Assembly (NCBI GenBank): GCA_027371855.1
Contig: DAHXLB010000026.1
Span: forward strand, 1 to 55,633
Length of the DNA: 55,633 bases
Direction of reading: 5' to 3'
Source: a bacterium
GTDB taxonomy: Bacteria > Patescibacteriota > Dojkabacteria > JAKAPS01 > JAJZLI01
Part shown: positions 4,652 through 53,439 of the stretch, piece by piece
How the letters are laid out: each line of letters starts with the position of its first letter
Position numbering within the stretch: the stretch's first letter is position 1
Position numbers and translations under genes: made by a program
The notes under the pieces: generated by a model
Seen by the model: only the letters and a program-made list of their open reading frames with translations
Database searches by the model: none
Told to the model about the DNA's origin: nothing

Positions 4652-5266
4652 ATGGGAAATAGACAATTTTTTTATTTAATTGCAAAATATAGTTCTATAC
4701 CATTTGTTGTCATATTAGTGGTATTATTCCTTGTTTATATAAACCAAAATCACAAATCTAATAAAGTTACAACCAATCCACCAACATCTATATATAGAAA
4801 TGGGAATCTGTATGTAGATAAAAATACTGATGGTAATGTTATAACTAAAACTGAGGCATTCGATTTAAGATCAACCGAATCTTCAAAGGTAATGCAAATT
4901 AATGGAATAAATATATCCCTAATGGAAGCATCTACACAAAAACAACAGAATGCAGGATTAATGTATTTAAAAACTATGCCCACAGCTCAAGGATCTGGAT
5001 CCTTGGGATCTAGATCCAAAGGTATGATTTTCTATTTTAAAAACTATAAAATTCATCCTTTCTGGATGGCAAATACTCTAATTCCTTTGGATATGCTGTT
5101 TATATCAAATAATCTAACTATTAACCAAATAATCAAAGCACAACCATGCACAGGAATTTATTGTAAAATTCTTTATCCGAAATATAATTCAAAATATGTG
5201 ATAGAAGTTACACCTAAATTTGTAAATACATACAATATAAAAATAGGGGAGAATATATCTCTATAA
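4652..5266 (+). CDS. Membrane-anchored DUF192-family protein
   Basis: N-terminal TM helix. GLMYLK...GMIFYF...FWMANTLIPLDMLFI...PC matches the DUF192 (COG1430) pattern. It carries an inserted GSGSLGSRSK segment encoded by palindromic modules. Confidence 0.7.
   Translation: MGNRQFFYLIAKYSSIPFVVILVVLFLVYINQNHKSNKVTTNPPTSIYRNGNLYVDKNTDGNVITKTEAFDLRSTESSKVMQINGINISLMEASTQKQQNAGLMYLKTMPTAQGSGSLGSRSKGMIFYFKNYKIHPFWMANTLIPLDMLFISNNLTINQIIKAQPCTGIYCKILYPKYNSKYVIEVTPKFVNTYNIKIGENISL
4988..5022. repeat. Two tandem 15-bp palindromic modules (GGATCTGGATCC / GGATCTAGATCC + AAAGG)
   Basis: caaGGATCTGGATCCttgGGATCTAGATCCaaagg is read directly from the sequence. It contains four GATC sites in 27 nt and encodes QGSGSLGSRSKG. 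Confidence 0.8.
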
Positions 5267-5735: not shown

Positions 5736-6830
5736 ATGAATAAATATAATGTAGGTATAATAGCAAAAGATATACTAAATAGGGAAGAAACAGGGATTGA
5801 AAATTATACCCTAAGTATCCTAAAAGAGTTTGATAAGTATACAAATATTAATTTCACTGTATATATAAACCATCTAGATGAAGACCATCTAGATGGAGAT
5901 CATCTATATAAATCAAATTTCAAAAATATAAAATTCAAATATATAAAAAATAGACTTTTTTGGATGCATTTATCTTTGCCATTGCAACTTAGAAAAGATA
6001 AGCTGGACTTAATTTTCTCGCCTATTCCATCCATTCCACTATTCACAAAGACCAAGTCCATAGTTGTAGTACATGATCTATCATTTGAATATATGGATCA
6101 AAAGTTTATAAAAACAACAGTATTTTTTATTAAACACTCACTAGATACTGCGACAAAAATAATAGCTGTATCAAAATTTACCAAAGATCAAATACTAAGT
6201 AATTTCAAAATTGAAGAAAATAAAATCAAAATTATTTATGAATCATGTGACAGAGATTTATACAAATTTGATAAAAAAAAGAGAAATTTAAGAGAATTAA
6301 ACATTCTTTGTGTGGGCACAATAAATAAGAGAAAGAATTTTACTCATATTATCAAAACTATTCCTATATTAAAAAAGAAATTTGATACTGTAAAATTAAC
6401 AATTATAGGTAAATATGGTGATGATTATATCAACTTACAAAAGACAATTGAGGATCTAGGAGTAAAGAATGATGTAATCATAACAGGATACGTTCCAAAT
6501 AACGAATTAGTAAGATATTTCCATAAAAACGACGTATTTGTATATGCTTCGAAAGAAGAAGGGTTCGGTATCCCTATTTTAGAAGCATATTCTTCAGGTA
6601 CTCCTGTAGTAACATCTAATATATCTGCCACTAAAGAGATTGGAGAATCCGCTTCAGTTCTTGTAGACCCAAATAACTTTTTTGACATTGCAGATGGTAT
6701 AATAGCTGCATATGAAAATAGCGAAGAACTTGTAGAATTGGGACTTATTGAAGTTAAAAAATACACATGGGAAAAAACATCAAAAGAGATAATAAACCTA
6801 ATAGAGAGAACTCTTATACCAAAGATTTAG
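5736..6830 (+). CDS. Glycosyltransferase family 4 (GT1/GT4 fold)
   Basis: 364 aa. The C-terminal EGFGIPILEAYSSGTPVVTS (E-x7-E) motif is typical of GT4 enzymes. It contains an HLDEDHLDGDHL tandem insert. Confidence 0.8.
   Translation: MNKYNVGIIAKDILNREETGIENYTLSILKEFDKYTNINFTVYINHLDEDHLDGDHLYKSNFKNIKFKYIKNRLFWMHLSLPLQLRKDKLDLIFSPIPSIPLFTKTKSIVVVHDLSFEYMDQKFIKTTVFFIKHSLDTATKIIAVSKFTKDQILSNFKIEENKIKIIYESCDRDLYKFDKKKRNLRELNILCVGTINKRKNFTHIIKTIPILKKKFDTVKLTIIGKYGDDYINLQKTIEDLGVKNDVIITGYVPNNELVRYFHKNDVFVYASKEEGFGIPILEAYSSGTPVVTSNISATKEIGESASVLVDPNNFFDIADGIIAAYENSEELVELGLIEVKKYTWEKTSKEIINLIERTLIPKI
5870..5906. repeat. 15-bp tandem repeat built on CCATCTAGATGR palindromes
   Basis: CCATCTAGATGAagaCCATCTAGATGGagatCATCTA. 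The second unit is a perfect 12-bp palindrome. It is read as HLDEDHLDGDHL. Confidence 0.8.
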
Positions 6831-7459
6831 GTCCTCGGAGCTAAATCCTTCTTAATATTCCTTATATGTCTTACTATGAAGAATATTATACCTATTATTA
6901 CTATAATTAGAATATAATTTGATAGGGATTCTATGATTTTTGCAAAATATTGCCAATGTGCCCCAAATAAGAACCCTATGTATGTAAGAACTATAGCCCA
7001 AATCAGTGATCCTATAAAAGTATATAGAAGGAATTTTTTAAAGTTCATTCTAGCTATTCCTGCAGGAAAAGATATAAATGTTCTAAAAACAGGTAGGAAT
7101 CTAGAGACTAGTATAGTTATATCCCCATATTTTAAAAACCAAGAGTGTGCAGTATTAAGATCTTTCTTACTAATAAATAGATATTTTCCATATTTTTCTA
7201 AGAAATCATCACCTAGAGTTCCTATGTAATATGACAATACAGATCCAAGAAGATTCCCCAATGTACCAACTAGTACAACTAAGTAAAAATTTAACTTACC
7301 AAAAGACACTAAAAATCCAGAAAATGTCATTACAACTTCAGATGGAATTGGAATATTTAAACTTTCAAGCGTCATAAAAAAGAAAATTCCTGTATAAGAA
7401 AACTTCGTTATCACGTGAATAATCAGGTTACTTATTGTAATAATAATACTACTAGACAT
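6827..7459 (-). CDS. DedA/SNARE-associated family membrane protein
   Basis: 210 aa and multi-TM. The motifs ...PIPSEVVMTFSGFL... and ...SRFLPVFRTFISFPAGIARM are DedA signatures. Confidence 0.8.
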   Translation of the reverse strand: MSSSIIITISNLIIHVITKFSYTGIFFFMTLESLNIPIPSEVVMTFSGFLVSFGKLNFYLVVLVGTLGNLLGSVLSYYIGTLGDDFLEKYGKYLFISKKDLNTAHSWFLKYGDITILVSRFLPVFRTFISFPAGIARMNFKKFLLYTFIGSLIWAIVLTYIGFLFGAHWQYFAKIIESLSNYILIIVIIGIIFFIVRHIRNIKKDLAPRT

Positions 7460-7574: not shown

Positions 7575-8045
7575 ATGACAAAAATAAAAAAAGCTACAAG
7601 TATAAAAAACGAGAAAGCTAGTAAATCTTTGAACGTTGAAGATGAAGAACCCATAATAGGTAATGACAGAGAGGAGGAGATTGATAATATATTTTTAGAT
7701 GAAGATATAGTAGTTGATACAATACCTGATGTAGCAATAGATGATAGTACTGATGATGAATTAATTGATATTCCTGAAATTTCTACAGTCACAGAAGATA
7801 TACCTAATATAGCATCAGATATTAAGGTTGTTAAATGTGTTAACTGTAAAGAAGATGTCTTAGAAGCAGATCTTTGCCCTATATGTGGCAAACCTTTAAA
7901 AAAGAAGACGAAAGTTAAAAGAAATACTGATTTACTAGATACAGAAAGAGATACATTGCATGATAATGATTTCTTTGAGGAAGAAGATGAATATATTTCT
8001 AACATTACTTCTAAGCTAAAAGATGAAGAGTCCTATGAAGGATAA
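7575..8045 (+). CDS. Hypothetical highly acidic protein with a CxxC-x10-CxxC zinc ribbon
   Basis: 156 aa, rich in D and E, with CVNCKEDVLEADLCPICGKP. No family was recognised. It overlaps the tig start. The antisense ORF 7535..8005 is low-complexity shadow. Confidence 0.55.
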   Translation: MTKIKKATSIKNEKASKSLNVEDEEPIIGNDREEEIDNIFLDEDIVVDTIPDVAIDDSTDDELIDIPEISTVTEDIPNIASDIKVVKCVNCKEDVLEADLCPICGKPLKKKTKVKRNTDLLDTERDTLHDNDFFEEEDEYISNITSKLKDEESYEG

Positions 8046-9084
8046 TAAAACTACTAAAATTCCAGAGTCTGAGGAGTCTAGACTCAAGAAGTCTGAACTT
8101 AAAGAATCTAGGTTCAAAGGTATAAAAATAACAGACATTAAAAGAGGTGAGAAATCTCATATTACATTTACTGTAAGAATTGCAAAAGAATTAGTAAAAG
8201 AAACTATAGATAAAGTAACGAATGGCTATATAAAAAATACTGAAATAAAAGGTTTTAGAAAAGGTAATGCTCCACAAAAACTAGTTTTCCAAAAATATCA
8301 TGATGCTATCGTTAAAGATTCATATGATGAAATTAATCATCTTATAAATGACTATATAGTTGATCAGATTAAAGACCTAATGAGTATATCTTTAAATAAA
8401 GAATTTATTGAAGAAATGACAAAAGATCTGGATATAGAATTAAACTTTTCAGGTTATACCAAACCTAAGATTAATAAAGTCAATTTAAAGAATATAAAAA
8501 TACCTAGAAAGACAGCAGAGGAGGAGTATGATAGAACTTCAGAAAAATATAAGAACCCAAAAACAGACGAAGAAAAGGCTGCATATGAGAATTTCATAAG
8601 TAATAAAGACATATCTATAGAAAATATTCTAGATAATATGATTATAGAGGCAATAATAGATGCAGTGATTCTTGAAAAAGAAGATATACCTGAATATATA
8701 ATTACAAATTATGTTACATCTTCAATTGAGAAGACAAAACAATTTACTGATAGTATGGGAATAGATATAAATGAATATTTCAAAAATATAGGAACGACCC
8801 ATGAAAAAGTCGTAAATGGTCTTGAAGAAGATATAATAAAACAGTTAAAATTAGATCTATTCATACAAGACTTTGCTTCAACAAACTCTATAACAGTAAC
8901 TAAAGAAGATATTGAAGAGAGATTATCTAGCCTTACTCCTGAACAAGTTAAACAAATAAAAGATGAGAAAGCAGATTTAGAAGAAATATTTAACACAATA
9001 TTGTATAATAAGGTAATGACTGCCTCTGTTAATATTATTAAAGGACCTAGGTCCAAAGGATCCAGATCCAAAGGAAACCAGTAA
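8023..9084 (+). CDS. tig: Trigger factor-like chaperone, apparently lacking the PPIase domain
   Basis: [12 protein letters not shown] ribosome-binding signature in the N-domain, position immediately upstream of clpP, and a C-terminal helical arm region. At 353 aa it includes terminal extensions encoded by palindromic modules. Confidence 0.7.
8071..8120. repeat. Three degenerate 15-bp modules (GAGTCTAGACTC ... GAATCTAGGTTCAAAGG)
   Basis: gagGAGTCTAGACTCaagaagtctgaacttaaaGAATCTAGGTTCAAAGG encodes [17 protein letters not shown] in the tig N-terminal extension. Confidence 0.65.
9040..9074. repeat. Two tandem 15-bp palindromic modules (GGACCTAGGTCC / GGATCCAGATCC + AAAGG)
   Basis: aaaGGACCTAGGTCCaaaGGATCCAGATCCaaagg encodes [12 protein letters not shown], just before the last two codons of tig. 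Confidence 0.8.
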
Positions 9085-9751: not shown

Positions 9752-9802
9752 TAATATAGTAAAGGTACAAGTACTTAAGGTACTAATACCAAAGGAGAAA
9801 AT

Positions 9803-10408
9803 ATGCTTCTACATTTAATAATGAATCTTATAAATAATTATGGTTATATCATAATAGCCTTGTTTATAATGATTGAGACACTAGGAGTTCCTCTTCCTGG
9901 AGAAACATCCCTTATAGCTGGTGCAGTATACGCAGCATTAGCTCCTACAAGATTTCATATTACACTAGTAATATTATTTGCAATTTTAGGAGCATCTATA
10001 GGAGATAACTTGGGATACTTAATAGGTAGAAAATACGGGAAAAGAGCATCAGAGTATATTCATAAAACCTTCTCTCTAAAAAGAGATTACTTGGAGTATA
10101 CAGGAGGATTCTTCAAAAAATATGGAATGAAAACAGTTTTTTTTGGTAGATTTGTATCCTTACTAAGAATGTTTGTACCAATAACAGCAGGAATACATAA
10201 ATTGGATTATAAACAATTCTTTATATATAATATTACAGGTGCAATAGTTTGGGCGACTTTGTATGGAATATTAGGATATACTCTAGGAGAAAATATTCCT
10301 TTATTATTAAAAATATTGCAATCATTAACATTTATAACTGTGGCTATTGTAGTGGTGATAGTTATATATATAATTTATAGAAGAAGGACCCAGGTCCGTA
10401 GAATATAG
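9803..10408 (+). CDS. DedA family membrane protein (second paralogue)
   Basis: 201 aa with GVPLPGETSLIAGA and FGRFVSLLRMFVPITAGI DedA motifs. AGGAG lies upstream of the ATG. Confidence 0.8.
   Translation: MLLHLIMNLINNYGYIIIALFIMIETLGVPLPGETSLIAGAVYAALAPTRFHITLVILFAILGASIGDNLGYLIGRKYGKRASEYIHKTFSLKRDYLEYTGGFFKKYGMKTVFFGRFVSLLRMFVPITAGIHKLDYKQFFIYNITGAIVWATLYGILGYTLGENIPLLLKILQSLTFITVAIVVVIVIYIIYRRRTQVRRI
10386..10397. repeat. Near-palindromic module GGACCCAGGTCC
   Basis: It lies in the last codons of dedA2 and is read in a different frame (RTQVR) from the GS-type copies. Confidence 0.5.
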
Positions 10409-13470: not shown

Positions 13471-13983
13471 ATTAACCTGAAAAGGAGATTTATAAGTTAT
13501 AATAATTACATAAAAGCCAATGAATTGAGGGTAGTTGATGAAGATGGTGAATTTCTTGGTATATTGAATAAGCAAGATGCTATAATAAAAGCTCAGGAGA
13601 AAGGATTAGATTTAATAGAGATTGCACCAAATGCTAATCCACCGGTTTGCAAAATAATGTCATATTCAAAGTATAAATATGAGCAAAGCAAAAAAGATAG
13701 AGAGGCAAACAAAAAAAATAGGCACAAAGAGATAAAAGAGATTAGATTTAAACCTTTTATTGGAATAGGAGATTATAATAATAAAATAAACAAGATAAAA
13801 GAATTCCTGGGGGATCATCATAGAGTAAAGATAGTTATACGTCAAACTGGAAGAGGAAATGTAGAGAATTCTAGAATATTGATGACTAGAATTATAGAAA
13901 GTCTAAAGGATGATGCTAAAATAGAGAATACTCCTAAACAAGAAGGAAGAAATACTATAGCTCAAGTTCAACCAATAACATAA
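13471..13983 (+). CDS. infC: Translation initiation factor IF-3, probable ATT start
   Basis: VVDEDGEFLGI, PPVCKIMSYSKYKYE and KEIRFKP are IF-3 motifs. The frame is open back to 13432. ATT at 13471 lies 5 nt after AAGGAGG. The ORF-track start (TTG 13525) would remove the conserved N-terminal part. Confidence 0.8.
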   Translation: MNLKRRFISYNNYIKANELRVVDEDGEFLGILNKQDAIIKAQEKGLDLIEIAPNANPPVCKIMSYSKYKYEQSKKDREANKKNRHKEIKEIRFKPFIGIGDYNNKINKIKEFLGDHHRVKIVIRQTGRGNVENSRILMTRIIESLKDDAKIENTPKQEGRNTIAQVQPIT

Positions 13984-15607: not shown

Positions 15608-18018
15608 TGAAAATATCTTTAAGTCTGATAAAAGAATACACATATATTCCTGATAATAAAAAGTCTCTGTATGACCTTATAGACGAATTTGCAAAAAAAT
15701 CAGTAGATGTTGATGAAATAAGAGAATATCCTAATTTTGGAGAGGATATTATTATAGGGGAAGTAAAAGAGATTTATAAACATAAAAATGCAGATAGACT
15801 TTATGTAACAAAAGTAGATATAAAGGATAAGGAAATTCAAATAGTGACAGGAGCGCCTAATGTGTACAAAGGAATGATAGTCCCTGTAGTACTAGAAGGT
15901 AGTGAGATAAATGGACAAAAAATTGAGAAACATGATTTCAGAGGAGAGGCATCTTACGGCATGATGTGTTCAGAAAAAGAATTAGGATTAGGAGAAAATC
16001 ATTCTGGCATTCTTGACCTTGGATCTAGATCCTTTGAATCTAGGTCTGGATATAAATCAATAGGATCATTATTTACAGATCATATTGGAGAGAGTCTACA
16101 AAGCATAATAAAAGATACAATAATAGATATTGATAATAAGGTTATATCTCAAAGAGGAGATTTATTTTCTCATCATGGTATTGCAAGAGAATTTGCTACT
16201 ATAGAGCATAAGCCTTTTAGTGAAAGAATTATAACTCCTATAAAAACTAACAAAAGAAATAACTTGAAGGTTACTATTGAAGATAAAAATTTTTGTAACA
16301 GATATTGTGCCATTACCATTGATAATATAAAGGTAGAAGAATCTCCTTTCTGGATCAGAGAGAGATTAAAAAATTTAGGCATAAAACCTATAAATAATAT
16401 AGTAGATATAACAAACTATGTAATGGTGAATTTAGGACAACCATTGCATGCTTTTGATGTTTCTAAAATATCAGAAAATACTGATCTTGAAATAAAAGTA
16501 AGAAAAGCAAAACAAAATGAAGAAATCACAACGTTAGATTCTAAAAAAAGGGTATTAACGAAAAATAATTATGTTATTGCAACAAAAAATAAAAGTATTG
16601 GTATAGCAGGAGTTATGGGAGGAAAAGAATCAGAGATAGATGAAAGTACACAAAGTATATTGCTAGAAAGTGCATCTTTTAATCCTTTACTTGTAAGGAA
16701 AAGTGCAAAATCAGTAAATATAAGATCTGAAGCTGTATTAAGGTATGAGAAAGGGATTTCACAATCATTAACACTAAAAGCATTAAATTATGCAGTAGAA
16801 TTAATATTGCAAAATACCACAGGTGAAATATCAAGCTCTGTTACTGATATTGTTACAAACAAAGTAGTGGCTGATTTAATTATAAAATTAGATATTTCTA
16901 AAATAGAAAAGGTCTTAGGAATGGAAATCCCCTTAAAAGATACTTCTAATATATTAGCAAGTTTAAATATTAAAAATAAACAGGTTGGAAATTTTATGGT
17001 TGCTACTATACCTGATGAGAGATTAGATATAAAAGAAGATATTGACCTTATTGAGGAGATTGGAAGAATATATGGCTATGAAAATATTGATATAGAGGAA
17101 CCTAATATGAAAGTTATGTCTGTTAGAAAGAATGTAGTGTTTGATATAAATAACAAAATAATAAGTATAATAGCATCACTAGGTGGTTATGAAATAAAGA
17201 CATATTCATTTATAAACCAAGATCTAATGAATAAATCTTTAATAGAGACTGATGCAATAAAGATTTTGAACCCTATATCTCCAGATTTTGATCTTTTAAG
17301 ACCATCGTTGATACCATCTGTAATTTATACGGTAAGTAATAATCAAAGGCACAAAGATACCTTCATTCTTTATGAGATAGCTAATGTTTACCTAAAGAAT
17401 AATGATCTTCAACCGAAAGAAGAACGACACCTTATAGCTGCATATTTTAGTAAAGATAAGGAGGAACCATTTTTCTATATGAAGAGAGTACTTGATACCA
17501 TTAATACATACTTAAATTTAACTAATATTTTTGAATATAGAAATAAAGCTGAAAAACCATTTTTTAAAAATAAAAGTAGTAAGATTTATATAGATGGAGA
17601 CTACATAGGTGAGATAGGAGATATAAGTTCTGCTGTTAAAGAAAATTTTGGAATATATGGTAACTTATCAATATTTGACATAAATATAGATAATTTACAT
17701 AATAAAATAAATAAATTTATTAGTATAAAAGATATTTCTAAATTTCCAGAAATTAAAGAAGATATAACAATATTATATAAAAATAAAATCAATTTAAAAG
17801 ATATATTAGATAAGATTAACGATACAAATCTAAGAACAAAAGAGATTATAGATATTTACAAAGGTAGTAAAATAAATACTGATGAAATTAGTATAACATT
17901 AAGGTTGATATTTGAGAATTTTGAGAGGACTTTTTTAGGAACTGAAATAAAAGAAAAAATAGATAATATAAAAAGTATTTTGTCAGAAAATTTTAAAGAT
18001 AATATTACTTTCCGTTAA
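15607..18018 (+). CDS. pheT: Phenylalanyl-tRNA synthetase beta subunit
   Basis: 803 aa with an N-terminal tRNA-binding (OB) domain, B3/4 and B5 domains, and a FDX-ACB-like C-terminus. ATGA overlap with pheS. Confidence 0.92.
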   Translation: MKISLSLIKEYTYIPDNKKSLYDLIDEFAKKSVDVDEIREYPNFGEDIIIGEVKEIYKHKNADRLYVTKVDIKDKEIQIVTGAPNVYKGMIVPVVLEGSEINGQKIEKHDFRGEASYGMMCSEKELGLGENHSGILDLGSRSFESRSGYKSIGSLFTDHIGESLQSIIKDTIIDIDNKVISQRGDLFSHHGIAREFATIEHKPFSERIITPIKTNKRNNLKVTIEDKNFCNRYCAITIDNIKVEESPFWIRERLKNLGIKPINNIVDITNYVMVNLGQPLHAFDVSKISENTDLEIKVRKAKQNEEITTLDSKKRVLTKNNYVIATKNKSIGIAGVMGGKESEIDESTQSILLESASFNPLLVRKSAKSVNIRSEAVLRYEKGISQSLTLKALNYAVELILQNTTGEISSSVTDIVTNKVVADLIIKLDISKIEKVLGMEIPLKDTSNILASLNIKNKQVGNFMVATIPDERLDIKEDIDLIEEIGRIYGYENIDIEEPNMKVMSVRKNVVFDINNKIISIIASLGGYEIKTYSFINQDLMNKSLIETDAIKILNPISPDFDLLRPSLIPSVIYTVSNNQRHKDTFILYEIANVYLKNNDLQPKEERHLIAAYFSKDKEEPFFYMKRVLDTINTYLNLTNIFEYRNKAEKPFFKNKSSKIYIDGDYIGEIGDISSAVKENFGIYGNLSIFDINIDNLHNKINKFISIKDISKFPEIKEDITILYKNKINLKDILDKINDTNLRTKEIIDIYKGSKINTDEISITLRLIFENFERTFLGTEIKEKIDNIKSILSENFKDNITFR
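16018..16050. repeat. Two 15-bp palindromic modules inside pheT (GGATCTAGATCC / GAATCTAGGTCT)
   Basis: cttGGATCTAGATCCtttGAATCTAGGTCTgga encodes LGSRSFESRSG. Confidence 0.8.
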
Positions 18019-30900: not shown

Positions 30901-31563
30901 TCAATTGGAATAGACGTAATTTTCTAAAGTTGCGCTAGAGATTAAATTCATGCATACTTTTTGTCCGTAAAATTGAAACGTATTTAGAGTACAACCTTTG
31001 ATCAAAATTGTTACATAAGGTGCAATATATACACTAGAATTTGATCCTTGGGGAGTACCAGTATAGTTGTAATTATAGTAGTAGAAATTTAATGCCTCTA
31101 CATCTATATTATTAGGATTTGTTACATTACTGCCATTATATGTAATATATCCTCCAGTTTTTTGCCCACCTGGGATAGACGAAGATGATGTTAGAGTAAT
31201 AGTTGCAATAGTATCACCAACTTGATTCTTTACTATTAAGGAACCAGAAGAGCTACAAAGAACAATAGAACTTTGGGGAGGATTAGGGTTACATATACCT
31301 GAGTTTACATTAGTAAGGTTAACAGTAGCTCCATTCCTAATAACTTTTTTTAAATAACTCATTGCATATTGTATTTGATTTTCAACGTGAGATTGAGTAT
31401 TTAAATCTGTAATATATGCATATGTATTAGTAAATGAAGACATTAATACTAAAATCAAAAAGGAGAATATTGCCATTACAACTAATAGTTCTATAAGGGT
31501 AAACCCTTTTTTTATATTAAATACATATTTAGCTATTTTATTATTTTTTACATTTCTTAACAT
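30901..31563 (-). CDS. Minor pilin (prepilin-type N-terminal cleavage/methylation domain)
   Basis: Leader ending KKG|FTLIELLVVMAIFSFL. Confidence 0.8.
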   Translation of the reverse strand: MLRNVKNNKIAKYVFNIKKGFTLIELLVVMAIFSFLILVLMSSFTNTYAYITDLNTQSHVENQIQYAMSYLKKVIRNGATVNLTNVNSGICNPNPPQSSIVLCSSSGSLIVKNQVGDTIATITLTSSSSIPGGQKTGGYITYNGSNVTNPNNIDVEALNFYYYNYNYTGTPQGSNSSVYIAPYVTILIKGCTLNTFQFYGQKVCMNLISSATLENYVYSN

Positions 31564-32186
31564 GATTTTCCAGTAATAATCTTGGTAGAGCTCAGGTATT
31601 GATTAAAACTTCCTTTAGGATATCCTCCAATCCAAGGTAATGAAGAAGGCATTGTTTGAGATGTACTTCCATTATTAAAATTCCAAAATACATATCCTGT
31701 TATAGTTGACTGGTTACATGAGCTTAAAGATGTTCCCATTGGTTGAGAATATAAAAGTATTTCCATATTCTGGGGTTCGCTAAAAAGAGCCAATTGATTT
31801 GCTGTTGCACCAACAACATTTAGTGCATTCGCTATAGGTAGACAATTTTGAGAATTTGAGTTTGCAGCACTACAGGATATACCTTCATTAGAAGTCCACG
31901 ATATATTACCCTCATTAGCCCATACATGAGCATACGACATCTCATATGATAGAACTTGTTGTGCTACCATATTAGCTTCATTTTGATAGCTCTGATGAAT
32001 TGCAAGTGATTCAGCATATAATACTGCAAGTAGTATAAAAGACATGAATACCATGGCTACAAGGGTCTCTATTAGAGTAAATCCACCTGATACATTTAGA
32101 TTTATATTATTTGAATCCATGTTCGATGAATCTAGACTCATCGAACATGAATCTTTAATATATTTAAAAAGATTTTTTTTATCCAT
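31557..32186 (-). CDS. Minor pilin (prepilin-type N-terminal domain); start uncertain
   Basis: ...NVSGG|FTLIETLVAMVFMSF. A start at 32186 gives a 36-aa leader. An alternative ATG at 32120 gives a 14-aa leader (MDSNNINLNVSGG). Confidence 0.75.
   Translation of the reverse strand: MDKKNLFKYIKDSCSMSLDSSNMDSNNINLNVSGGFTLIETLVAMVFMSFILLAVLYAESLAIHQSYQNEANMVAQQVLSYEMSYAHVWANEGNISWTSNEGISCSAANSNSQNCLPIANALNVVGATANQLALFSEPQNMEILLYSQPMGTSLSSCNQSTITGYVFWNFNNGSTSQTMPSSLPWIGGYPKGSFNQYLSSTKIITGKSC
32118..32149. repeat. 32-bp near-perfect palindrome centred on TCTAGA
   Basis: CATGTTCGATGAaTCTAGAcTCATCGAACATG has 15 of 16 positions self-complementary. It lies in the leader/5' region of the minor pilin gene. 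Confidence 0.85.
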
Positions 32187-32188
32187 AT

Positions 32189-32965
32189 TTATTGCATTGT
32201 TTGAACTACACTATTTGCATTGCTACTATATGTATCATATATATTAACATCCTCTGAAGAATTAGTATATTTAAGAGTAAAAGATGCGTTACTTCCAACC
32301 CCAGGTGAGCTTATAAGACTATAAGGAGAACTCAAAGAATATATAAATACACTACCAGACACTTCTTCAAGCAAAGGAAAATTACCATTAGAGGATATTG
32401 TTACACCAGGAGACAAAGCATGATAATAAGTTGCATTTGCTGGAGTAATGCTTCCTCCAATGCACTTACTAAGTGGATTAACAGAACCACTATATGTGTC
32501 TCCTGAAGGATAGTTATTATATAGTGAGTTATTCTGAGGTGGGATTGAGTTATCATAGGTTGGAGATGGAGGAGGGTTATTGCTATTTTGATCTTGGCAC
32601 GAAGGTTGAACATTCTTAACTGCCATAACTACATCATACCCAGGACAATCGCTAGTACATATTTGAGTAGCACTTGTAGCAGGTATTATATAAAATCCAT
32701 AAACCCAATTGTTACCTGCAGGTTCTTTATAAAAAGATGTAACCCCTGATACAGCTTCCTCTTTAATATAACTTAATCTTGACATAAAATTAGAGACAGA
32801 ACTTGATAATACTGCCTGAGATTGAAGTCCTTTTGTACCAAATAAAACTAACATTATCATGATTACAGAGATAGCCATCACAATTAAAAGCTCAATTAAT
32901 GTAAATCCTTTGGGTCCAGATCCTTCAATTCTATTAATTTTATTTTTTCTTTCTAAATCTATCAT
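32189..32965 (-). CDS. Minor pilin (prepilin-type N-terminal domain)
   Basis: Leader ...RIEGSGPKG|FTLIELLIVMAISVIM. Confidence 0.8.
   Translation of the reverse strand: MIDLERKNKINRIEGSGPKGFTLIELLIVMAISVIMIMLVLFGTKGLQSQAVLSSSVSNFMSRLSYIKEEAVSGVTSFYKEPAGNNWVYGFYIIPATSATQICTSDCPGYDVVMAVKNVQPSCQDQNSNNPPPSPTYDNSIPPQNNSLYNNYPSGDTYSGSVNPLSKCIGGSITPANATYYHALSPGVTISSNGNFPLLEEVSGSVFIYSLSSPYSLISSPGVGSNASFTLKYTNSSEDVNIYDTYSSNANSVVQTMQ
32907..32923. repeat. Palindromic module copy (minus strand GGATCTGGACCCAAAGG)
   Basis: It encodes GSGPKG immediately before the prepilin cleavage site. Confidence 0.6.
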
Positions 32966-33870: not shown

Positions 33871-34497
33871 TTAGTTACATGTAATACTTACAGTCCCAGA
33901 AGTTAAAGTATTATTATTTAAAGAGTAAGGAGAGTTACTTCCATTTGCAGTGTAAGGGAATATGCCTCCATTTTCTAAACATGCTCCAACTACATAACCT
34001 GTAATAGTTTGATCATTTGACAATGCCACTGAACCATTATGAAAAGGTATGTAGAAATAATGAGTATTACTATTACCAGAAGTTCCAGTTGTATAACCAA
34101 ATCCAGGGGTTGTGCTAACTGCAGTGCAAGAATATCCACTACCAGAATTACTTAGTGTTGATTGGTTAGGAACTATTGTTGGGCTACACAGACTAGAGTC
34201 TGTAACATATGGGTTAATGCCTGGAAAAGGAGAAGCAAAAACAACGTCACCACTCGTCTGCATACCTACAGAATAAGGATATGTTTGTCCTGTTCCGTAA
34301 TACGTCTCTAACAAACCAGAAAGACCTTTCACTGCTGTTTGTCTTGCAGAGTTTCTTGCATCAGCCTGAGCTGCACCAAGACCTATAATTGCAATAGCAA
34401 TTAATATACCTATAATTGCCATAACAATCAAAAGCTCAACTAAAGTAAAACCTTTTGAATTTAATTGTTTTATTCTGAATCTAGATTCTCTATTCAT
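33871..34497 (-). CDS. pilA: Major type IV pilin
   Basis: 208 aa with leader MNRESRFRIKQLNSKG|FTLVELLIVMAIIGILIAIAI. It has its own upstream intergenic region and a strong terminator. Confidence 0.8.
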   Translation of the reverse strand: MNRESRFRIKQLNSKGFTLVELLIVMAIIGILIAIAIIGLGAAQADARNSARQTAVKGLSGLLETYYGTGQTYPYSVGMQTSGDVVFASPFPGINPYVTDSSLCSPTIVPNQSTLSNSGSGYSCTAVSTTPGFGYTTGTSGNSNTHYFYIPFHNGSVALSNDQTITGYVVGACLENGGIFPYTANGSNSPYSLNNNTLTSGTVSITCN

Positions 34498-36856: not shown

Positions 36857-38613
36857 TCTATATCTTCTTTTGCTACTCTATATACTTCCTCTAGCGTTGT
36901 AATCTTATCAAGAACCTTTAGAAAACCATTTTGTACCAGAGACATCATATTATTTGACCTGGCAATTTTATCGATTTCATCAGTAGATGCTTTTTTTAAT
37001 ATTAAATCTCTTATTGCATCATTGACTATAAGTACTTCAAAAATACCAATTCTACCAAGATAGCCAGTATTGTTACACGTATCACACCCCTTGCCTCTAG
37101 ATAAATATAGCACACTGTTATTTGTTTGTGAAGAATCAGGAGTCTGGGCTCTTGTAATATACTTTGATATATCTATATTACTTCCTTCAAGTTCCTTAGT
37201 AATTTCATCAATCACAGTTTTATCCACTACATAATCTTCTTTGCAAACTTGACATATTGTACGCACAAGTCTTTGGGCAACAACTATTTCAATAGTTGAT
37301 GATATTAAAAATGGTTCAATCCCCATATCAAGAAGTCTAGGTAATGCACCAGCTGCAGAAGTTGTATGGATGGTTGATAAAACTAAATGTCCTGTTAATG
37401 AGGCTTGGGTAGCAAGACGTGCAGTCTCCTCATCTCTGATTTCTCCAACCATAATTATATTAGGGTCCTGTCTTAGAAATGCTCTTAGACCAGTAGGAAA
37501 AGTAAGTCCAACTTCATCATTGACCTGCACTTGATTCACCCCATCAATTTCTATTTCTACAGGATCTTCCAAAGTTGATATATTCACTGAATCATTATTA
37601 ATTTGTGCTAATGAAGCTGCTAGTGTCTGTGTTTTCCCAGAACCTGTAGGCCCTGTAATGAGAATAATTCCTTTAGTTAGAGATAAACCCTTTTTATATT
37701 TTTCAAATGATACTCCAGTAATACCTACATCTTCAAGTTTTGGTATACCTGCACCCTTCCTTAACAGCCTTATTACAATTTTTTCCCCATACACAATAGG
37801 CAATGTTGAAATTCTTAAATCTACAAGCTCTTTTTCTACTTTTATTGAAAATCTTCCATCCTGCGGCATCCTTTTTTCATCAATCTTCAATTTCGATAAA
37901 ATTTTCACTCTTGATATAACTGCAGGAGCTAAAGATAGTGGTATAGATAACTTCTCTTGCAAAATTCCATCAATTCTATACCTAAACCTTAATCTTTTTC
38001 TTTCTGGTTCAACATGTATATCTGATGCTCTAAATTTCACAGCATACTCTAAAACAGTATTTACAATTTTAACAATAGGGGCATTTTTTATATCTCCAGT
38101 AATATTACCTAAATCATTTATACTACCAGTAACATCTTCTACATCAAAATCTAGGCCTGCAGCTTCAACATCTTCTACAACCTTACTTTCTATTTGTTCT
38201 GAGACATTGGTGCTAACAATATCCTGTATTTCCTCTGCCATTGCAAGATATGGAGTTATATGTATATTATATTTACTTTCAAGGTACTGTATTAGTTGAG
38301 AATCTAGAGGGTTGGCCATTGCCAACAATAAATTTCCATTTTGCTCTTCGAAAGGTAATATTGTATGGTCTTTAATATCATTAATACTTACCTTATTAAA
38401 AACATCTCGCTGTATAGTTACACCAGCAAGATCTTTGAATGGTATATTTATAACAGAAGCTTTTGCTATATAAAAATCCTTTTTACTTACAATATTCATG
38501 TTAAAGATAATATCTTCCACATCTTTATTATTTGTAATAGAATCTATCCTTATCTTATTTGCAGTTTTTTGATCAATTTTTAATTGACTTACTAATACAT
38601 CTAATATATCCAT
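36853..38613 (-). CDS. pilB: Type IV pilus assembly ATPase PilB (GspE family)
   Basis: N-terminal GspE_N-like domain, Walker A GPTGSGKT, and a tetracysteine motif (CQVC...CDTC). Start is placed at ATG 38613; the ORF-track start at 38628 is a TTG. Confidence 0.9.
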   Translation of the reverse strand: MDILDVLVSQLKIDQKTANKIRIDSITNNKDVEDIIFNMNIVSKKDFYIAKASVINIPFKDLAGVTIQRDVFNKVSINDIKDHTILPFEEQNGNLLLAMANPLDSQLIQYLESKYNIHITPYLAMAEEIQDIVSTNVSEQIESKVVEDVEAAGLDFDVEDVTGSINDLGNITGDIKNAPIVKIVNTVLEYAVKFRASDIHVEPERKRLRFRYRIDGILQEKLSIPLSLAPAVISRVKILSKLKIDEKRMPQDGRFSIKVEKELVDLRISTLPIVYGEKIVIRLLRKGAGIPKLEDVGITGVSFEKYKKGLSLTKGIILITGPTGSGKTQTLAASLAQINNDSVNISTLEDPVEIEIDGVNQVQVNDEVGLTFPTGLRAFLRQDPNIIMVGEIRDEETARLATQASLTGHLVLSTIHTTSAAGALPRLLDMGIEPFLISSTIEIVVAQRLVRTICQVCKEDYVVDKTVIDEITKELEGSNIDISKYITRAQTPDSSQTNNSVLYLSRGKGCDTCNNTGYLGRIGIFEVLIVNDAIRDLILKKASTDEIDKIARSNNMMSLVQNGFLKVLDKITTLEEVYRVAKEDIE

Positions 38614-38707
38614 ACTTCTACAATACAATACAATATATAATTTTTAAAGTACCTGGATATAAGTACCCAAGGTACAAAGTATATTTTTTTTATGATAGAA
38701 TAGTCCC

Positions 38708-39349
38708 ATGGCCCAAAGCATCATTATAGAGTCAAATAATATTGAGAGTAGTGTAGCTTTTGCAAGATCTTATTTAGAGGATCTTGATTTAGAAGGTAAT
38801 TCTGCTTCTAGAAGCACTTCTGAATTTATACATATTAATGAACCTACTATCTCAATAGATCATATTAGAGATTTACAAAAATCACTATCATATAAACCAT
38901 ATACTGGCAAAACAAGGGTTATTCTTGTATCTATCCTTGGAAAAATATCTGATTCTGCTCAGAATGCTATGTTGAAAATGTTGGAAGATAATCAGTCACA
39001 TACACAAATAATATTACAAGTATCAAATTCAGAATTTCTACTTAAAACAATACTTTCAAGGTGCATTATAAAAAAGGGGGATCATATCTATGAAAATTTT
39101 TATGACATAAAGAATTTTTTGTCATTACCTTTACAAGAGAGACTATTATTTGTAAGCTCTGTCGAGAATACTAAGGGCTTTATTCAAAATTTGATTTCGT
39201 ATATAATTGCTTCGTATAAACAAAGTAATGAAAACTCTAAAAGTAGCAGAAGTAGTTATATTGTAAGTATAATGAAAGATTGGGAGCAGGCAATTGCAAA
39301 TAATGTCCCTGAAAAATTAATATTAGAAGATATTGCAATACAAATATAA
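38708..39349 (+). CDS. holB: DNA polymerase III delta-prime-like clamp-loader subunit (short form)
   Basis: 213 aa. ...ISDSAQNAMLKMLEDNQSHTQIILQVSNSEFLLKTILSRC matches the sensor-1/SRC region of delta-prime/RFC-like AAA+ proteins. No Walker A is visible. Confidence 0.65.
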   Translation: MAQSIIIESNNIESSVAFARSYLEDLDLEGNSASRSTSEFIHINEPTISIDHIRDLQKSLSYKPYTGKTRVILVSILGKISDSAQNAMLKMLEDNQSHTQIILQVSNSEFLLKTILSRCIIKKGDHIYENFYDIKNFLSLPLQERLLFVSSVENTKGFIQNLISYIIASYKQSNENSKSSRSSYIVSIMKDWEQAIANNVPEKLILEDIAIQI

Positions 39350-43789: not shown

Positions 43790-43812
43790 TATAATTATCA
43801 TTGCTAGATAAA

Positions 43813-43880
43813 TTGACATTATTATAATTATATTGACAATTAAATTGTTTGACATTATTATAATACTATGATAGTATACT
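43813..43880 (+). promoter_or_regulatory. Promoter/operator region of the Phd-PIN module
   Basis: Three TTGACA boxes (43813, 43833, 43849). The direct repeat TTGACATTATTATAAT occurs twice (43813-43828, 43849-43864). A palindrome TACTATgATAGTA lies at 43864-43876. TAGTAT/TATACT -10 candidates lie just before the ATG. Confidence 0.5.
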
Positions 43881-43886
43881 GGTATT

Positions 43887-44162
43887 ATGGATTTAATAAC
43901 AGTGACAGTAAGAGATATCTTAAGAAAACAGAAAGAAATTTTTAGTAAAGTAGAAGCCGGTGATTCTCCAATAGTTGTTACTCAACATAACAGACCACAA
44001 GTTGCTATAATTAATCTAGGTGATCTCAAACTACTACAAACACAAAAATCTTTAAAATATACGTACAATCTTTTAAAACTAGGGGATGAAGCTAAAAAAT
44101 ATAATCTCTCTGGACCTAAAGATTTGTCTATAAATCATGATAAATACATCTGGGATAAATAA
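43887..44162 (+). CDS. Phd/YefM-family antitoxin
   Basis: 91 aa. TVRDILRKQKEIFSKVEAGDSPIVVTQHNRPQVAIINLGD is the typical Phd/YefM N-domain. It lies immediately upstream of a PIN gene. Confidence 0.75.
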   Translation: MDLITVTVRDILRKQKEIFSKVEAGDSPIVVTQHNRPQVAIINLGDLKLLQTQKSLKYTYNLLKLGDEAKKYNLSGPKDLSINHDKYIWDK

Positions 44163-44164
44163 TC

Positions 44165-44590
44165 ATGTATGAAAATAAATTGATAGTAGCTGATACTGAT
44201 ATTTTAATATCTTTGGTATATGAATCTGATATTAATCATGAGATTATTATTGATTTAATGCAAAAAATAATAACCAACAACTATACTGTACAATTTCCTA
44301 ATACTGCAATACTTGAAACTATTACTGCCCTTAAAAGAGCTTTAAACAAGCCTGATTTATCAAAATTAATCAACACTAATTATCAAAATGATTTTTTTGG
44401 AATCATTTATATTAATGATAAAATTCAGAAAAGAGCAAGTATAATTTTTGATGATTTAATTTCTAAACAAAACACAATTTTTGATGCTATTGTTATTGCT
44501 ACTGCAGAGATTTATGAAGCTAAAGCAATCTTTAGTATGGACAAAGTTTATAAAAAATACTTTCCTTTAGCACAAGAATTAGTCAATTAA
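44165..44590 (+). CDS. PIN-domain toxin (VapC-like)
   Basis: 141 aa with an N-terminal ...VADTDILISL acidic residue, ...LETIT... and ...FDAIVIATAE... PIN motifs. Confidence 0.7.
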   Translation: MYENKLIVADTDILISLVYESDINHEIIIDLMQKIITNNYTVQFPNTAILETITALKRALNKPDLSKLINTNYQNDFFGIIYINDKIQKRASIIFDDLISKQNTIFDAIVIATAEIYEAKAIFSMDKVYKKYFPLAQELVN

Positions 44591-44663
44591 ATACCTTTAT
44601 CATTATCTGATCCTATTTATATAATCATAGGATGAAAAAAATTTAATAAAAAATCCAGTAATA

Positions 44664-46668: not shown

Positions 46669-47013
46669 ATGAAAGGTAGTATGATTGCAAAATTGTTTTT
46701 GTTAGTTGTTGTAATAATAAGTTTATATTATGTATCAACTAGAGTACACGCTGCAAGTCCAAACATAGGTCCAATACAAAGGTATGAAATACAATCTCAG
46801 GGATCTTTTGTTAATACCCAAAAATCTATAATACTTTATTTATCATCTTTACCAGCAACTTCTATAATATTTCAACACGCTGTTTATAATGGCTCTATAA
46901 CAGGAGCTCAGGATACTTTATGTACTTTTTATTCTACGAGTACTGGATCAATGATCACAACACCCAATAGCACACCTAACTATTCAGGTAACAACCCAGG
47001 TAATTGTAATTAA
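46669..47013 (+). CDS. Small secreted hypothetical protein
   Basis: Signal-peptide-like MKGSMIAKLFLLVVVIISLYYVSTRVHA|AS. The mature part is S/T/N-rich and no family was recognised. The ORF-track start at 46654 is a TTG. Confidence 0.5.
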   Translation: MKGSMIAKLFLLVVVIISLYYVSTRVHAASPNIGPIQRYEIQSQGSFVNTQKSIILYLSSLPATSIIFQHAVYNGSITGAQDTLCTFYSTSTGSMITTPNSTPNYSGNNPGNCN

Positions 47014-47987: not shown

Positions 47988-48031
47988 AAAATCATTATAG
48001 AGTAAAAATACTAAAATTATAACAATTAATT

Positions 48032-48697: not shown

Positions 48698-48915
48698 TCC
48701 TGTTTAACAAAATCCTGAATATCTTTGGAGGAATCAAACCCTAAAATTGCATGAGTCCCATCACAAAAAGGCTTACTTGAAGACTGTCCACATCTACAAA
48801 GGTAAACCTCTTCAGAATCTAAAGTAATTTTATTACCTTCTGAATCCTCCAAAACATCTCCAGCAGAAACATTCAATTTTATTGGTCCGTTTTTAGTAAA
48901 TTTTATATTTGCCAT
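48694..48915 (-). CDS. CDGSH iron-sulfur domain protein
   Basis: 73 aa with the CRCGQSSSKPFCDGTH signature. 4-nt overlap with the downstream oxidoreductase. Confidence 0.8.
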   Translation of the reverse strand: MANIKFTKNGPIKLNVSAGDVLEDSEGNKITLDSEEVYLCRCGQSSSKPFCDGTHAILGFDSSKDIQDFVKQE

Positions 48916-48959
48916 AGTATTATTTATTATAAAATAATCATATTAAATTTAGATTAACT

Positions 48960-49130: not shown

Positions 49131-49139
49131 ATTCTACAA

Positions 49140-49148
49140 ATTATATCA
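49140..49148 (-). promoter_or_regulatory. Extended -10 element TGATATAAT for the small-ORF/CDGSH/FNR operon
   Basis: The minus strand reads TGATATAAT, followed by 9 nt and then ATG (49130). Confidence 0.4.
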
Positions 49149-49394: not shown

Positions 49395-49400
49395 ACATAT

Positions 49401-52857: not shown

Positions 52858-53439
52858 TTATAAATTACCGTTGCCTTTAGATCCAGAACCTTTCAATAGG
52901 ATTAGTCCTTTCTTTACAGCATCTTTAGTATCAATAATTCCAACCAAATCATTAGATATAACTGATATTTCCTCATATGAGAAACCTAAAGATATAAGTG
53001 CATCTTGAACATCTCTATTTAAAGATACTCCTTCATATTTAAAATTATCAAGTTTTCCTCTAAGTTCAAGAACAATTCTCTCAGCAACCTTCTTACCTAA
53101 TCCTGGAATTGACGATAAAAAATTGGAATCTTCTTCAATAATTGCCTTCACTAAAATCTGAGATTGATGATAAGAAAGTATATTTAAAGCACCTTTAGGA
53201 CCTATACCAGATACAGAAATTAATTTTTCAAAAAGAAAAAGATCTTCTTTATTAGGAAAACCAAAAAGTCTAAAATACTTATCACCTACATCAGAATAGA
53301 TAAATACTTCAATTTCAGAAACATCTTCTTTTAGCATCAAAGGCTTTATAACCTCCACCTTATACCCAACATTATTAACCTCTATTACTAGATAATCAGT
53401 ACCTCTATATATTACATTCCCTTTTAAATATCCAATCAT
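52858..53439 (-). CDS. ruvA: Holliday junction DNA-binding protein RuvA
   Basis: 193 aa with MIGYLKG, two HhH motifs (VSGIGPKGA, IPGLGKKVAERI) and domain III. The C-terminal GSGSKGNGNL tail comes from a palindromic module. Confidence 0.92.
   Translation of the reverse strand: MIGYLKGNVIYRGTDYLVIEVNNVGYKVEVIKPLMLKEDVSEIEVFIYSDVGDKYFRLFGFPNKEDLFLFEKLISVSGIGPKGALNILSYHQSQILVKAIIEEDSNFLSSIPGLGKKVAERIVLELRGKLDNFKYEGVSLNRDVQDALISLGFSYEEISVISNDLVGIIDTKDAVKKGLILLKGSGSKGNGNL
52874..52894. repeat. Palindromic module copy (minus strand AAAGGTTCTGGATCTAAAGG)
   Basis: It encodes KGSGSKG at the RuvA C-terminus. Confidence 0.6.

Follow-up and report, generated by a model that had tools for sequence, protein, structure and literature searches.

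We analysed a 55.6-kb stretch of bacterial DNA (GenBank contig DAHXLB010000026.1, positions 1 to 55,633; referred to as the window), which represents one contig of a Patescibacteria species with 30% G+C, and found a family of 15-bp palindromic modules that are inserted in frame into unrelated conserved genes. About 17 units are present in 55.6 kb, corresponding to a density of roughly one per 4–5 kb, and all copies in the window are located in frame inside open reading frames (ORFs), at N- and C-termini, in cleaved prepilin leaders or in inter-domain loops. The constraint on these modules acts at the level of the DNA and not on the encoded peptide, and comparison with related lineages provides good support for lineage-specific, in-frame insertion at the DNA level. 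The modules may have spread as neutral or selfish palindromes through template switching at hairpins.

A palindromic module constrained as DNA

Each module comprises 15 bp, i.e. five codons, in which a 12-bp palindrome with CTAG (sometimes CCAG or CTGG) at its centre is joined to a 3-nt spacer. We write the pattern as RRRYCYRGRYYY(+3), with GRAYCTAGRTYC as the consensus palindrome, and the arms vary freely provided that complementarity is kept. Arms starting with GGAT, GAGT, GAAT, GGAC and CCAT were observed and many members, namely those with GAGTC, GAATC, GGACC or CCATC arms, contain no GATC. The spacer is usually AAA, AAG or AGA on the coding strand and thus purine-rich, which gives each array an orientation, and by this measure the array of PheT and the first unit of DUF192 (TTT/TTG) run the other way. 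Modules occur in arrays of one to three units (17–47 bp), many of which are closed by GG, and the units have a GC content of 42–75% compared to 30% for the window. Adjacent units within an array are non-identical and match as inverted rather than direct repeats, and in the DUF192 and GT4 genes two neighbouring units can pair with each other as well as with themselves, yielding a 12-bp stem with a 3-nt loop. In addition, the non-palindromic flank AAAGG is shared by six units in five genes, and an identical 12-mer, GGATCTAGATCC, is found in the DUF192 gene, in pheT and at an intergenic site of the related lineage L003.

The initial annotation had claimed that the same core is translated in three reading frames, which holds and can be refined. 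Most copies begin at codon position 1 (GGA TCT AGA TCC), where the core reads the same in either orientation, the copies of GT4 and of the pseudopilin leader begin at codon position 3 (x-CAT-CTA-GAT-x), and both copies at codon position 2 (DedA and PilB) have a CCAG instead of a CTAG centre. Since a CTAG centre at codon position 2 would create an in-frame TAG, this frame is used by CCAG-centred copies only.

One argument for a DNA-level constraint comes from codon usage. In perfect units, codons 1 and 4 are always complementary (GGA/TCC, GAG/CTC, GAA/TTC), as are codons 2 and 3 (TCT/AGA, CCT/AGG), and rare codons are used for this: in the window genes TCC accounts for 5.7% of Ser, CTC for 3.2% of Leu, TTC for 18% of Phe and AGG for 22% of Arg codons. 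If peptide and local codon usage are taken as given, as many complementary pairs as observed, or more, would occur with a probability of 0.002–0.03 in each perfect unit. The residue at position 4 (S, L or F) tracks codon 1 (GGA, GAG or GAA, respectively), a coupling that a palindrome demands and that would be senseless in a peptide motif. Covariation was assessed over 36 units, and those contributed by the orthologous sites of relatives were picked by position and not by symmetry. Here, 80.6% of cells pair (67.2% after shuffling) and 36 double-sided changes were counted where 13.2 were expected, values that none of 500 shuffles reached; positions 2/11, for example, are occupied by G–C in 13, A–T in 12 and C–G in 5 units. 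The window units were picked partly for symmetry, so that the covariation figure is somewhat inflated, while the codon argument and the units of the relatives are free of this bias. For the weakest members, RuvA and the pilin copy at 32912, palindromy is no greater than the peptide predicts. Codon test and covariation together bear out the earlier proposal of a DNA-level element as opposed to selection for Gly-Ser linkers, and the encoded peptides (GSRS, GPRS, ESRL, ESRF, HLDE and others) are best read as by-products of the palindrome.

The family also stands out statistically. All eight copies listed in the initial annotation were recovered with the coordinates, sequences, genes and peptides given there, and the count of motif matches against expectation that it had called for revealed a strong excess within the window: GRAYCYRGRTYC has 8 exact matches compared to 0.10 expected from dinucleotide shuffles of the window, RRRYCYRGRYYYAAAGG, i.e. 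a unit with AAAGG, has 6 compared to 0.01, and the two-unit pattern with 15-bp spacing has 3 compared to 0.00. These search patterns were written after copies had been seen, and a pattern-free test was therefore run, in which for each palindromic 4-mer the complementarity of the four flanking bases on each side was compared with permuted flanks. Nine out of 157 CTAG sites lie in perfect 12-bp palindromes where 1.5 are expected, which was reached in 0 of 2000 permutations (6 compared to 0.8 expected in the first 20 kb alone), and none of the 13 other palindromic 4-mer centres in the window shows an excess of 12-bp palindromes. Perfect 12-bp palindromes with at least six G+C likewise number 8, with 1.84 expected from order-3 Markov simulations. 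With observed/expected ratios of 1.00 for CTAG and 0.90 for GATC in the window, neither tetramer is avoided or enriched; the excess resides in the extended palindrome and not in the CTAG tetramer. Tandem Repeats Finder confirmed the previously suggested 15-bp period at two arrays (5869–5906 and 9040–9075). Two further perfect CTAG palindromes, ATACCTAGGTAT (25834) and AAAACTAGTTTT (8277), are AT-rich, the former being nearly conserved in relatives, and were treated as chance occurrences.

Outside of the window, the pooled 83 kb of relatives display no significant excess (4 compared to 1.9, p = 0.12) in a test that rests on CTAG-centred perfect palindromes only. An assembly artefact could be excluded for shared sites, where independent assemblies (L003, L004 and L005) agree. 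A search for GGATCTAGATCCAAAGG in 185,579 species genomes returned 13 scattered single matches in unrelated taxa, the background level for this 17-mer, so that neither the species of the window nor its motif family is represented in this set; three matches were seen in viral contigs. Scanning metagenomes for the two-unit pattern yielded 52 loci, none of which belongs to the module family of the window; nearly all are GC-rich (GGATCC)n-type Gly-Ser/Gly-Pro repeats with CCGG centres, and a few low-GC contigs encode (SDPDP)n. The latter is an N-terminal acidic repeat encoded by (GGATCCGGATCC+TTC)n, present with differing copy numbers in a protein on seven metagenome contigs of 29–36% GC (L026, L031, L053, L064, L073, L048 and L067), and constitutes an unrelated hypervariable coding tandem repeat. 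In the literature, we found no description of elements like the modules in Patescibacteria.

Insertion history and individual sites

Four related lineages were recovered for comparison. L001, L003/L004 and L005 are fully syntenic with about 77–80% amino acid identity and cover window positions 1–20 kb, L074/L075 with 86.5% nucleotide identity cover 24.4–46.7 kb, and the outgroup L076 (64% in PilC) covers the region of the pilus operon. The cluster of copies at 5–16 kb was thus compared with relatives at about 77% amino acid identity, and the RuvA tail was assessed from the window sequence alone. Among 18 orthologous genes (window 1–18 kb), every window-specific internal or C-terminal insertion of at least 5 amino acids is of the module type, the genes concerned being those of DUF192, GT4, VTT1 and PheT, plus trigger factor, where it is common to L001. 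Against L074/L075, we observed two clean 15-bp insertions of one module each and one 36-bp inverted duplication. The number of units varies among lineages in DUF192, at both termini of trigger factor, in PheT and in GT4, and the length of prepilin leaders increases stepwise from L076 over L075 to the window. Units found in the relatives are few, mostly AT-rich and imperfect. The orthologue alignment therefore agrees with the initial annotation, which had proposed lineage-specific in-frame insertions at termini, leaders and loops, and reveals that one lineage has undergone a recent burst, superimposed on a background that is older and decaying.

In the DUF192 gene (4991..5022, plus strand), two modules and a closing GG (GGATCTGGATCC ttg GGATCTAGATCC aaa GG) encode GSGSLGSRSKG. 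L003 has no unit at this site (PID-QGM), L001 a single AT-rich one (GATTCTGGATTTCAAGG) and the window two GC-rich ones, which fold into the 12-bp stem with 3-nt loop at −20.6 kcal/mol (z −4.0). Between the DUF192 and GT4 genes, L003 (6306–6569; also L004) has an extra CopG-family antitoxin gene, which in L003 adjoins the intergenic GGATCTAGATCC copy; the window has neither at that place. The adjacent GT4 glycosyltransferase gene carries three arm-variant modules at 5870..5914 on the plus strand (CCATCTAGATGA aga CCATCTAGATGG aga TCATCTATATAA atc, peptide HLDEDHLDGDHLYKS; hairpin of −16.9 kcal/mol, z −5.0), where L001 and L003 are 27 bp shorter and display CCATAAATATGA / CCATGAATATGA. Directly downstream (5915–5948; L001 7882–7941) lies an AT-rich coding repeat of 15-bp period, AAATTCAAAAATATA-like and encoding NFKNI/KFKYI. 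Since this repeat is present in all lineages, the site was already a five-codon repeat before the palindromes appeared. At the overlapping stops of the convergent GT4 (plus) and first VTT/DedA (minus) genes, two units (AGATTTAGGTCC tc GGAGCTAAATCC, 6823..6848) with a 10-bp stem and 46% GC supply the C-terminal residues of both proteins; about 27–30 bp are missing here in L001, L003 and L005.

Trigger factor is modified at both ends, with three modules in an N-terminal extension (8074..8120, plus strand; GAGTCTAGACTC aag AAGTCTGAACTT aaa GAATCTAGGTTC aaa GG) and two modules and GG at the C-terminus (9043..9074, plus strand; GGACCTAGGTCC aaa GGATCCAGATCC aaa GG). L001 has three diverged units at the N-terminus and L003 and L005 have two, and at the C-terminus L003/L005 have one and L001 two diverged units. 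A trigger factor homologue of 35% identity (P0005) does not have such a C-terminal tail. The protein itself (8023–9084, 353 aa) consists of the N- and C-terminal domains only, the PPIase/FKBP domain being missing across the whole clade, while more distant homologues of 416–433 aa do carry this domain. The second VTT/DedA gene carries a single unit at its C-terminus, GGACCCAGGTCC (10386..10397, plus strand), which is read as RTQVR; the four lineages are of equal length here and differ in a compensatory manner (GGACCCAGGTCC, GGACTCAAGTCA, GGACTCAAATCA, GAATTAAGATTC). A tract of 15-bp period at 9761–9795, initially considered as an intergenic member, was rejected as a promoter-like region with GGTAC boxes upstream of DedA. 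GGTAC(T)T / GGTACNNNTACC boxes are repeated upstream of pilB (38640–38672) and of the second VTT/DedA gene (9760–9797), their number differs between the window and L074/L075 (~7100–7190), and they look like promoter or operator repeats. A further site is a loop of PheT after the tRNA-binding domain (16021..16047, plus strand), in which two inverted modules (GGATCTAGATCC ttt GAATCTAGGTCT) encode GSRSFESRS. Eight homologues with 46–50% identity have no insert at this position, relatives with 78% identity have 6–7 additional residues and the window has 14.

In the pilus operon, the leader of a prepilin-like protein (pseudopilin; ORF 31557–32186) contains a 40-bp near-perfect CTAG-centred palindrome at 32114..32153 on the minus strand, with GAGTCTAGATTC as the inner 12-mer and an 18-bp stem of −23.2 kcal/mol (z −6.8). 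Of this palindrome, the close relative L075 possesses the left arm alone (MAKKIFFKYIRNSDSMNLNLSSG, then FTL); the window is longer by 36 bp, which begin with an inverted copy of the preceding ~20 nt. In L074, runs of N lie exactly at this palindrome (~13650–13760) and at the GGTAC-box region (~7160–7290), and L075, 99.9% identical to L074, is continuous across both, which suggests repeat- or hairpin-linked assembly breaks or population heterogeneity. The neighbouring pilin leader (ORF 32189–32965) carries a single unit with AAAGG (GGATCTGGACCC, 32907..32923, minus strand), read as GSGPKG before the FTLIEL cleavage motif, where L074/L075 have the non-palindromic GGAGATTCACAT at equal position and length. 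The two clean 15-bp insertions are located in the major pilin leader (34477..34491, minus strand; AGA+GAATCTAGATTC, MN[RESRF]RIK) and in PilB (37137..37151, minus strand; GAGCCCAGACTC+CTG, YIT[RAQTP]DSS). The first is missing in L074 and L075 and has AGA on both sides; the second is missing in L074, L075 and L076, so that it represents a gain in the window lineage, and no flanking repeat was found at the PilB insertion.

A C-terminal tail of RuvA contains a single, weakly palindromic unit and AAAGG (GGTTCTGGATCT, 52874..52890, minus strand; GSGSKG followed by NGNL and the stop). Its pairing is no better than codon usage predicts, and its membership thus rests on the AAAGG flanks and on the similarity to the trigger factor tail. 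The gene of DNA polymerase III delta' (holB) contains the perfect palindrome GCTTCTAGAAGC (38804..38815, plus strand; ASRS), a possible older member; it is identical in L074 and L075 and hence not recent, and its membership in the family is uncertain. Five sites (6823–6848, 34477–34491, 37137–37151, 32114–32153 and possibly 38804–38815) are thereby added to those listed first.

The gene content of the window is that of ordinary core genes of a bacterium of the Patescibacteria, or candidate phyla radiation (CPR): folD, glyA, dcd, pyrG, the DUF192 and GT4 genes, two VTT/DedA genes, trigger factor, clpP, thrS, infC, pheST, PBP, tyrS, recG, nusB, rnc, a complete type IV pilus operon, holB, gyrBA, two PIN toxin modules, a tyrosine recombinase and ruvABC. 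The closest named proteins are annotated as ‘MAG: Patescibacteria group bacterium’, and Dojkabacteria reach about 40% identity. Among the genes of the 55.6-kb window, we found no transposase, restriction–modification gene or DNA methyltransferase, and no HUH, RAYT (REP-associated tyrosine transposase) or Y1 transposase. Between gyrA and a Wzy/TPR gene, a block of ~870 bp (43790–44662) with a Phd/YefM antitoxin gene (43887–44162) and a PIN toxin gene (44165–44590) is present, which L074 and L075 do not have and which looks like a recent toxin–antitoxin cassette insertion. The region 47010–51000 starts with an XerC/D-like tyrosine recombinase gene (47010–47987), followed by a gene-poor, very AT-rich stretch with only a solitary PIN gene (49619–50017) and several tandem repeats, and may be the remnant of an integrated element. 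A YebC/TACO1 homologue of 285 aa (53980–54837) seems to contain an internal insertion of about 35 aa, as 183 residues of its second and third domains match 147 profile positions; GC-rich palindromes were not seen in this gene.

How the modules may arise and spread

We propose that a short palindrome would fold back on the nascent or template strand, whereupon the polymerase would switch template and copy one arm into the other, so that a palindrome would be created or restored and seemingly compensatory changes would arise in a single step. Realignment at short repeats such as AAAGG could then duplicate the 15-bp unit next door or copy a unit from another locus. AT-biased mutation would later erode the copies, which we propose as the reason why the units of the relatives are AT-rich and imperfect, with GC-rich, perfect ones in the window lineage only. 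Selection would merely filter, retaining lengths that are multiples of three, sequences without an in-frame stop and permissive positions in the protein, and the modules would be neutral or selfish rather than functional sites. The stem between two units with its minimal 3-nt loop would make sense of both the 12+3 geometry and a slippage step of 15 bp. We consider the chances even that spreading by hairpin-promoted template switching and slippage is the correct account. A single template-switch mutation is known to produce a perfect stem together with what look like compensatory substitutions (PMC8794818, PMC8604942), the mutually compensated 12-mers of equal length at the DedA C-terminus of four lineages count in favour of this account, and quasipalindrome hotspots have been described in E. 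coli (PMC7202029). Two sites of the window carry the signature of such fold-back: the left arm of the palindrome in the pseudopilin leader is orthologous to sequence of the relative and the new 36 bp start as an inverted copy of this arm, and in GT4 the CCAT...ATG(A/G) arms pre-exist in the relatives, with differences only in the centre and in the number of 15-bp units. These locally derived arms point to a palindrome-generating replication process as at least as likely as transposition.

Several observations weigh against template switching as a complete account. The AAAGG flank is common to six units in five genes, and GGATCTAGATCC is identical at two loci and in L003, so that purely local fold-back is insufficient and either ectopic copying or a mobile unit is needed. 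For the two clean 15-bp insertions, a local template was searched for and none was identified. Furthermore, 10 of the ~17 units cluster between 4.9 and 16 kb, which template switching does not explain, and by itself it gives no reason for the CTAG centre; the evidence is also that of one 55.6-kb contig of the species. That template switching reaches ectopic donors via AAAGG-type microhomology would accommodate the shared flank, and we regard this extension as evenly poised. As the main rival reading, the modules could be a trans-mobilised mini-element, i.e. a 15-bp palindromic unit moved by an enzyme encoded elsewhere (a transposase, a HUH/RAYT-like protein or a nuclease), which would prefer RAR|GG-type targets and recreate its target with each insertion, leading to array growth. 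Such a unit would be a smaller analogue of Rickettsia palindromic elements (RPEs) or GC clusters. It would account for the identity of GGATCTAGATCC in DUF192, PheT and the intergenic site of L003, for the AAAGG flank at 6 units where 0.01 are expected, for clean 15-bp insertions without a local template, for AGA on both sides of the insertion in the pilin leader and for a burst confined to one lineage, and the non-identity of neighbouring units in an array fits repeated insertion better than simple duplication. However, no transposase, HUH or restriction–modification gene is found in the window, no repeat flanks the PilB insertion, and the GT4 and pseudopilin palindromes are built from local arms. 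A unit of 15 bp is far below the size of any known transposable unit, free covariation of the arms is not obviously allowed by a sequence-specific enzyme, and the exact 17-mer is at background level in the 185,579 species genomes. We consider a mini-element unlikely. Excision footprints of a transposon (6 nt per terminal inverted repeat plus a 3-bp target duplication, in sum 15 bp) were set aside, because a transposon landing in essential genes would be lethal, no duplication is seen at the PilB site and arrays would need repeated cycles.

The remaining explanations assign a function to the palindrome or to its product. A double-stranded DNA site for a dimeric protein, for a methylase or restriction enzyme, or for uptake linked to the type IV pilus and competence would have to be accommodated in coding sequence where a genome has hardly any intergenic DNA. 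The 12-bp dyad symmetry, the 10 units clustered at 4.9–16 kb, the complete type IV pilus operon and the precedent of HIP1, a methylase-linked palindrome maintained inside cyanobacterial genes (PMC4390886, PMC5861425), are in line with this. Yet the half-sites covary as base pairs rather than each fitting one consensus, which argues against a dimeric protein, the arms differ wholly between members, CTAG and GATC occur at their expected frequency, and tandem 15-bp arrays are not expected for such a site. The relative with 86.5% nucleotide identity does not have the copies, unlike what is known for genus-wide uptake sequences or parS-type sites. The suggestion of paired GATC sites recognised for binding, methylation or uptake, raised in the initial annotation, is consequently not supported, given arms without GATC, covariation and a close relative without copies, and a functional DNA site is very unlikely overall; avoidance due to restriction–modification or methylation was rejected, with no 4-mer palindrome departing from expectation. 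Functional mRNA hairpins, acting as RNase III sites, 3′ stabilisers or terminators, or translational pause sites, could be read from the strong folding of three arrays (−20.6, −16.9 and −23.2 kcal/mol; z −4 to −6.8), from the position of several arrays at gene 3′ ends (trigger factor, DedA, RuvA and the convergent stops of GT4 and VTT1), from the RNase III encoded in the window and from the frequent G–U-compatible transitions. Single units and most arrays, however, fold no better than shuffles (z −1.6 to +1.9), a lone 12-mer yields a stem of only 4 bp, and the AT-rich versions of the relatives would not fold, yet have kept the dyad symmetry. Since leaders and loops furthermore have no obvious RNA role and no Rfam family matches, we hold an RNA function to be highly improbable. 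Finally, ordinary low-complexity Gly/Ser/Arg/Lys linkers could expand by slippage, with palindromy as a side effect of GGA/TCC-type codons; 15-bp repeats based on (GGATCC)n and encoding GS, GP or SDPDP tracts indeed arise in many unrelated organisms of the metagenome scan, and RuvA and the pilin copy at 32912, being no more palindromic than their peptides predict, could be of this type. For the family as a whole, this is largely refuted by codon usage, with rare codons exactly where complementarity demands them and a residue at position 4 that changes in step with codon 1. Members in other frames encode unrelated peptides (HLDED, RTQVR, RAQTP, SLDSS) and neighbouring units match as inverted, not direct, repeats, which makes linker expansion extremely unlikely.

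CPR genomes are tiny and almost fully coding, so that selfish or mutational DNA must survive inside genes. Among the conserved proteins (tRNA synthetase, chaperone, pilus ATPase, pilin leaders, RuvA), modules account for essentially all of the recent gain in length. In a far-reaching version that we put forward only tentatively, the module would be self-propagating, an order of magnitude below any described mobile repeat, actively spreading in frame through essential CPR genes and the dominant source of new residues in this lineage, either via a trans-acting enzyme that recognises CTAG-centred hairpin or cruciform DNA or via a lineage-specific defect or peculiarity of replication and hairpin processing that turns template switching into quasi-transposition. 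If genome-wide, the modules would offer a directly testable natural system in which hairpin-driven template switching generates protein sequence, would extend the phenomenon of RPEs and GC clusters to the 15-bp scale and to a new phylum, and would caution annotators against taking Gly/Ser/Arg/Lys ‘linkers’ in such genomes for selected peptides, since they may be artefacts of the DNA. Being hypervariable between close strains, the arrays could also serve as strain markers.

Comparison with known systems

Several known repeat classes differ from the modules in basic properties. Miniature inverted-repeat transposable elements measure ~50–500 bp and have a related autonomous insertion sequence, in contrast to a 15-bp unit and the absence of a transposase among the window genes. 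They also have terminal inverted repeats flanked by a regular target-site duplication; in the modules, the core is an inverted repeat throughout, with AGA on either side of the insertion in the pilin leader and AAAGG-type repeats beside arrays, but with no repeat at PilB. Repetitive extragenic palindromic (REP) sequences and the related BIMEs and REPINs are extragenic, imperfect palindromes of 20–40 bp associated with a RAYT, while the copies described here lie in ORFs and no RAYT/Y1 was found. DNA uptake sequences and uptake signal sequences (DUS/USS) consist of one conserved 9–12-mer at about one per kb that is shared by related species, which does not describe the modules. Simple coding tandem repeats are not matched either, since the units are palindromes with rare complementary codons and not 6-bp direct repeats, although slippage may account for changes in array length. 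HIP1 (GCGATCGC) of cyanobacteria is similar as an over-represented intragenic palindrome that occurs in several frames and is maintained at the DNA level (PMC5861425, PMC4390886). It is, however, one fixed 8-mer, 15–300-fold over-represented with up to more than one copy per gene, which arises mainly by substitution, is conserved phylum-wide and is linked to a methyltransferase. The ~17 units of the window have variable arms, occur about once per 4–5 kb, arise as insertions and are without copies in a close relative and without excess in the 83 kb of relatives. Template-switch (quasipalindrome) mutations resemble the modules in one-step inverted repeats, clustered compensatory changes and adjacent inverted duplications, and are known to alter coding sequence (PMC8794818, PMC8604942, PMC7202029), but have been described as a sporadic class and not as the source of a recognisable dispersed family whose members have centre, flank and 15-bp period in common.

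The closest parallels are RPEs and the GC clusters of yeast mitochondria. The comparison with RPEs made in the initial annotation is apt in terms of behaviour: in both cases palindromes are inserted in frame in unrelated conserved genes of a small, AT-rich and gene-dense genome and are missing from orthologues, the copies are lineage-specific, and host proteins stay functional with the added peptide at tolerant positions (PMC10969869). RPEs are, however, ~100–150 bp long, form conserved families with a conserved peptide and are specific to Rickettsia, whereas the modules, in a Patescibacteria host, are about ten-fold shorter, with 15-bp units in tandem arrays of 17–47 bp and with arms and peptides that differ between members. 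GC clusters are short, GC-rich palindromes of a genome that is very AT-rich, and by inserting in frame into var1 they make the length of the protein polymorphic; they are found both singly and in tandem arrays, carry short terminal repeats (AG/TAG), show rapid turnover and act as hotspots of recombination (PMC8811140). The modules correspond to them as GC-rich palindromes of an AT-rich genome that occur in frame in coding sequence, singly and in arrays. GC clusters are mostly intergenic and mitochondrial, with a ribozyme or a transposon-like process as the proposed mechanism, while the modules are about three-fold shorter, lie nearly all in coding sequence and are CTAG-centred; with a bacterial host and several-fold shorter units, homology is not expected. 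The modules thus belong to neither RPEs nor GC clusters and are closest to both in behaviour, constituting a very small version of an already known phenomenon, for which we infer a mechanism based on template switching.

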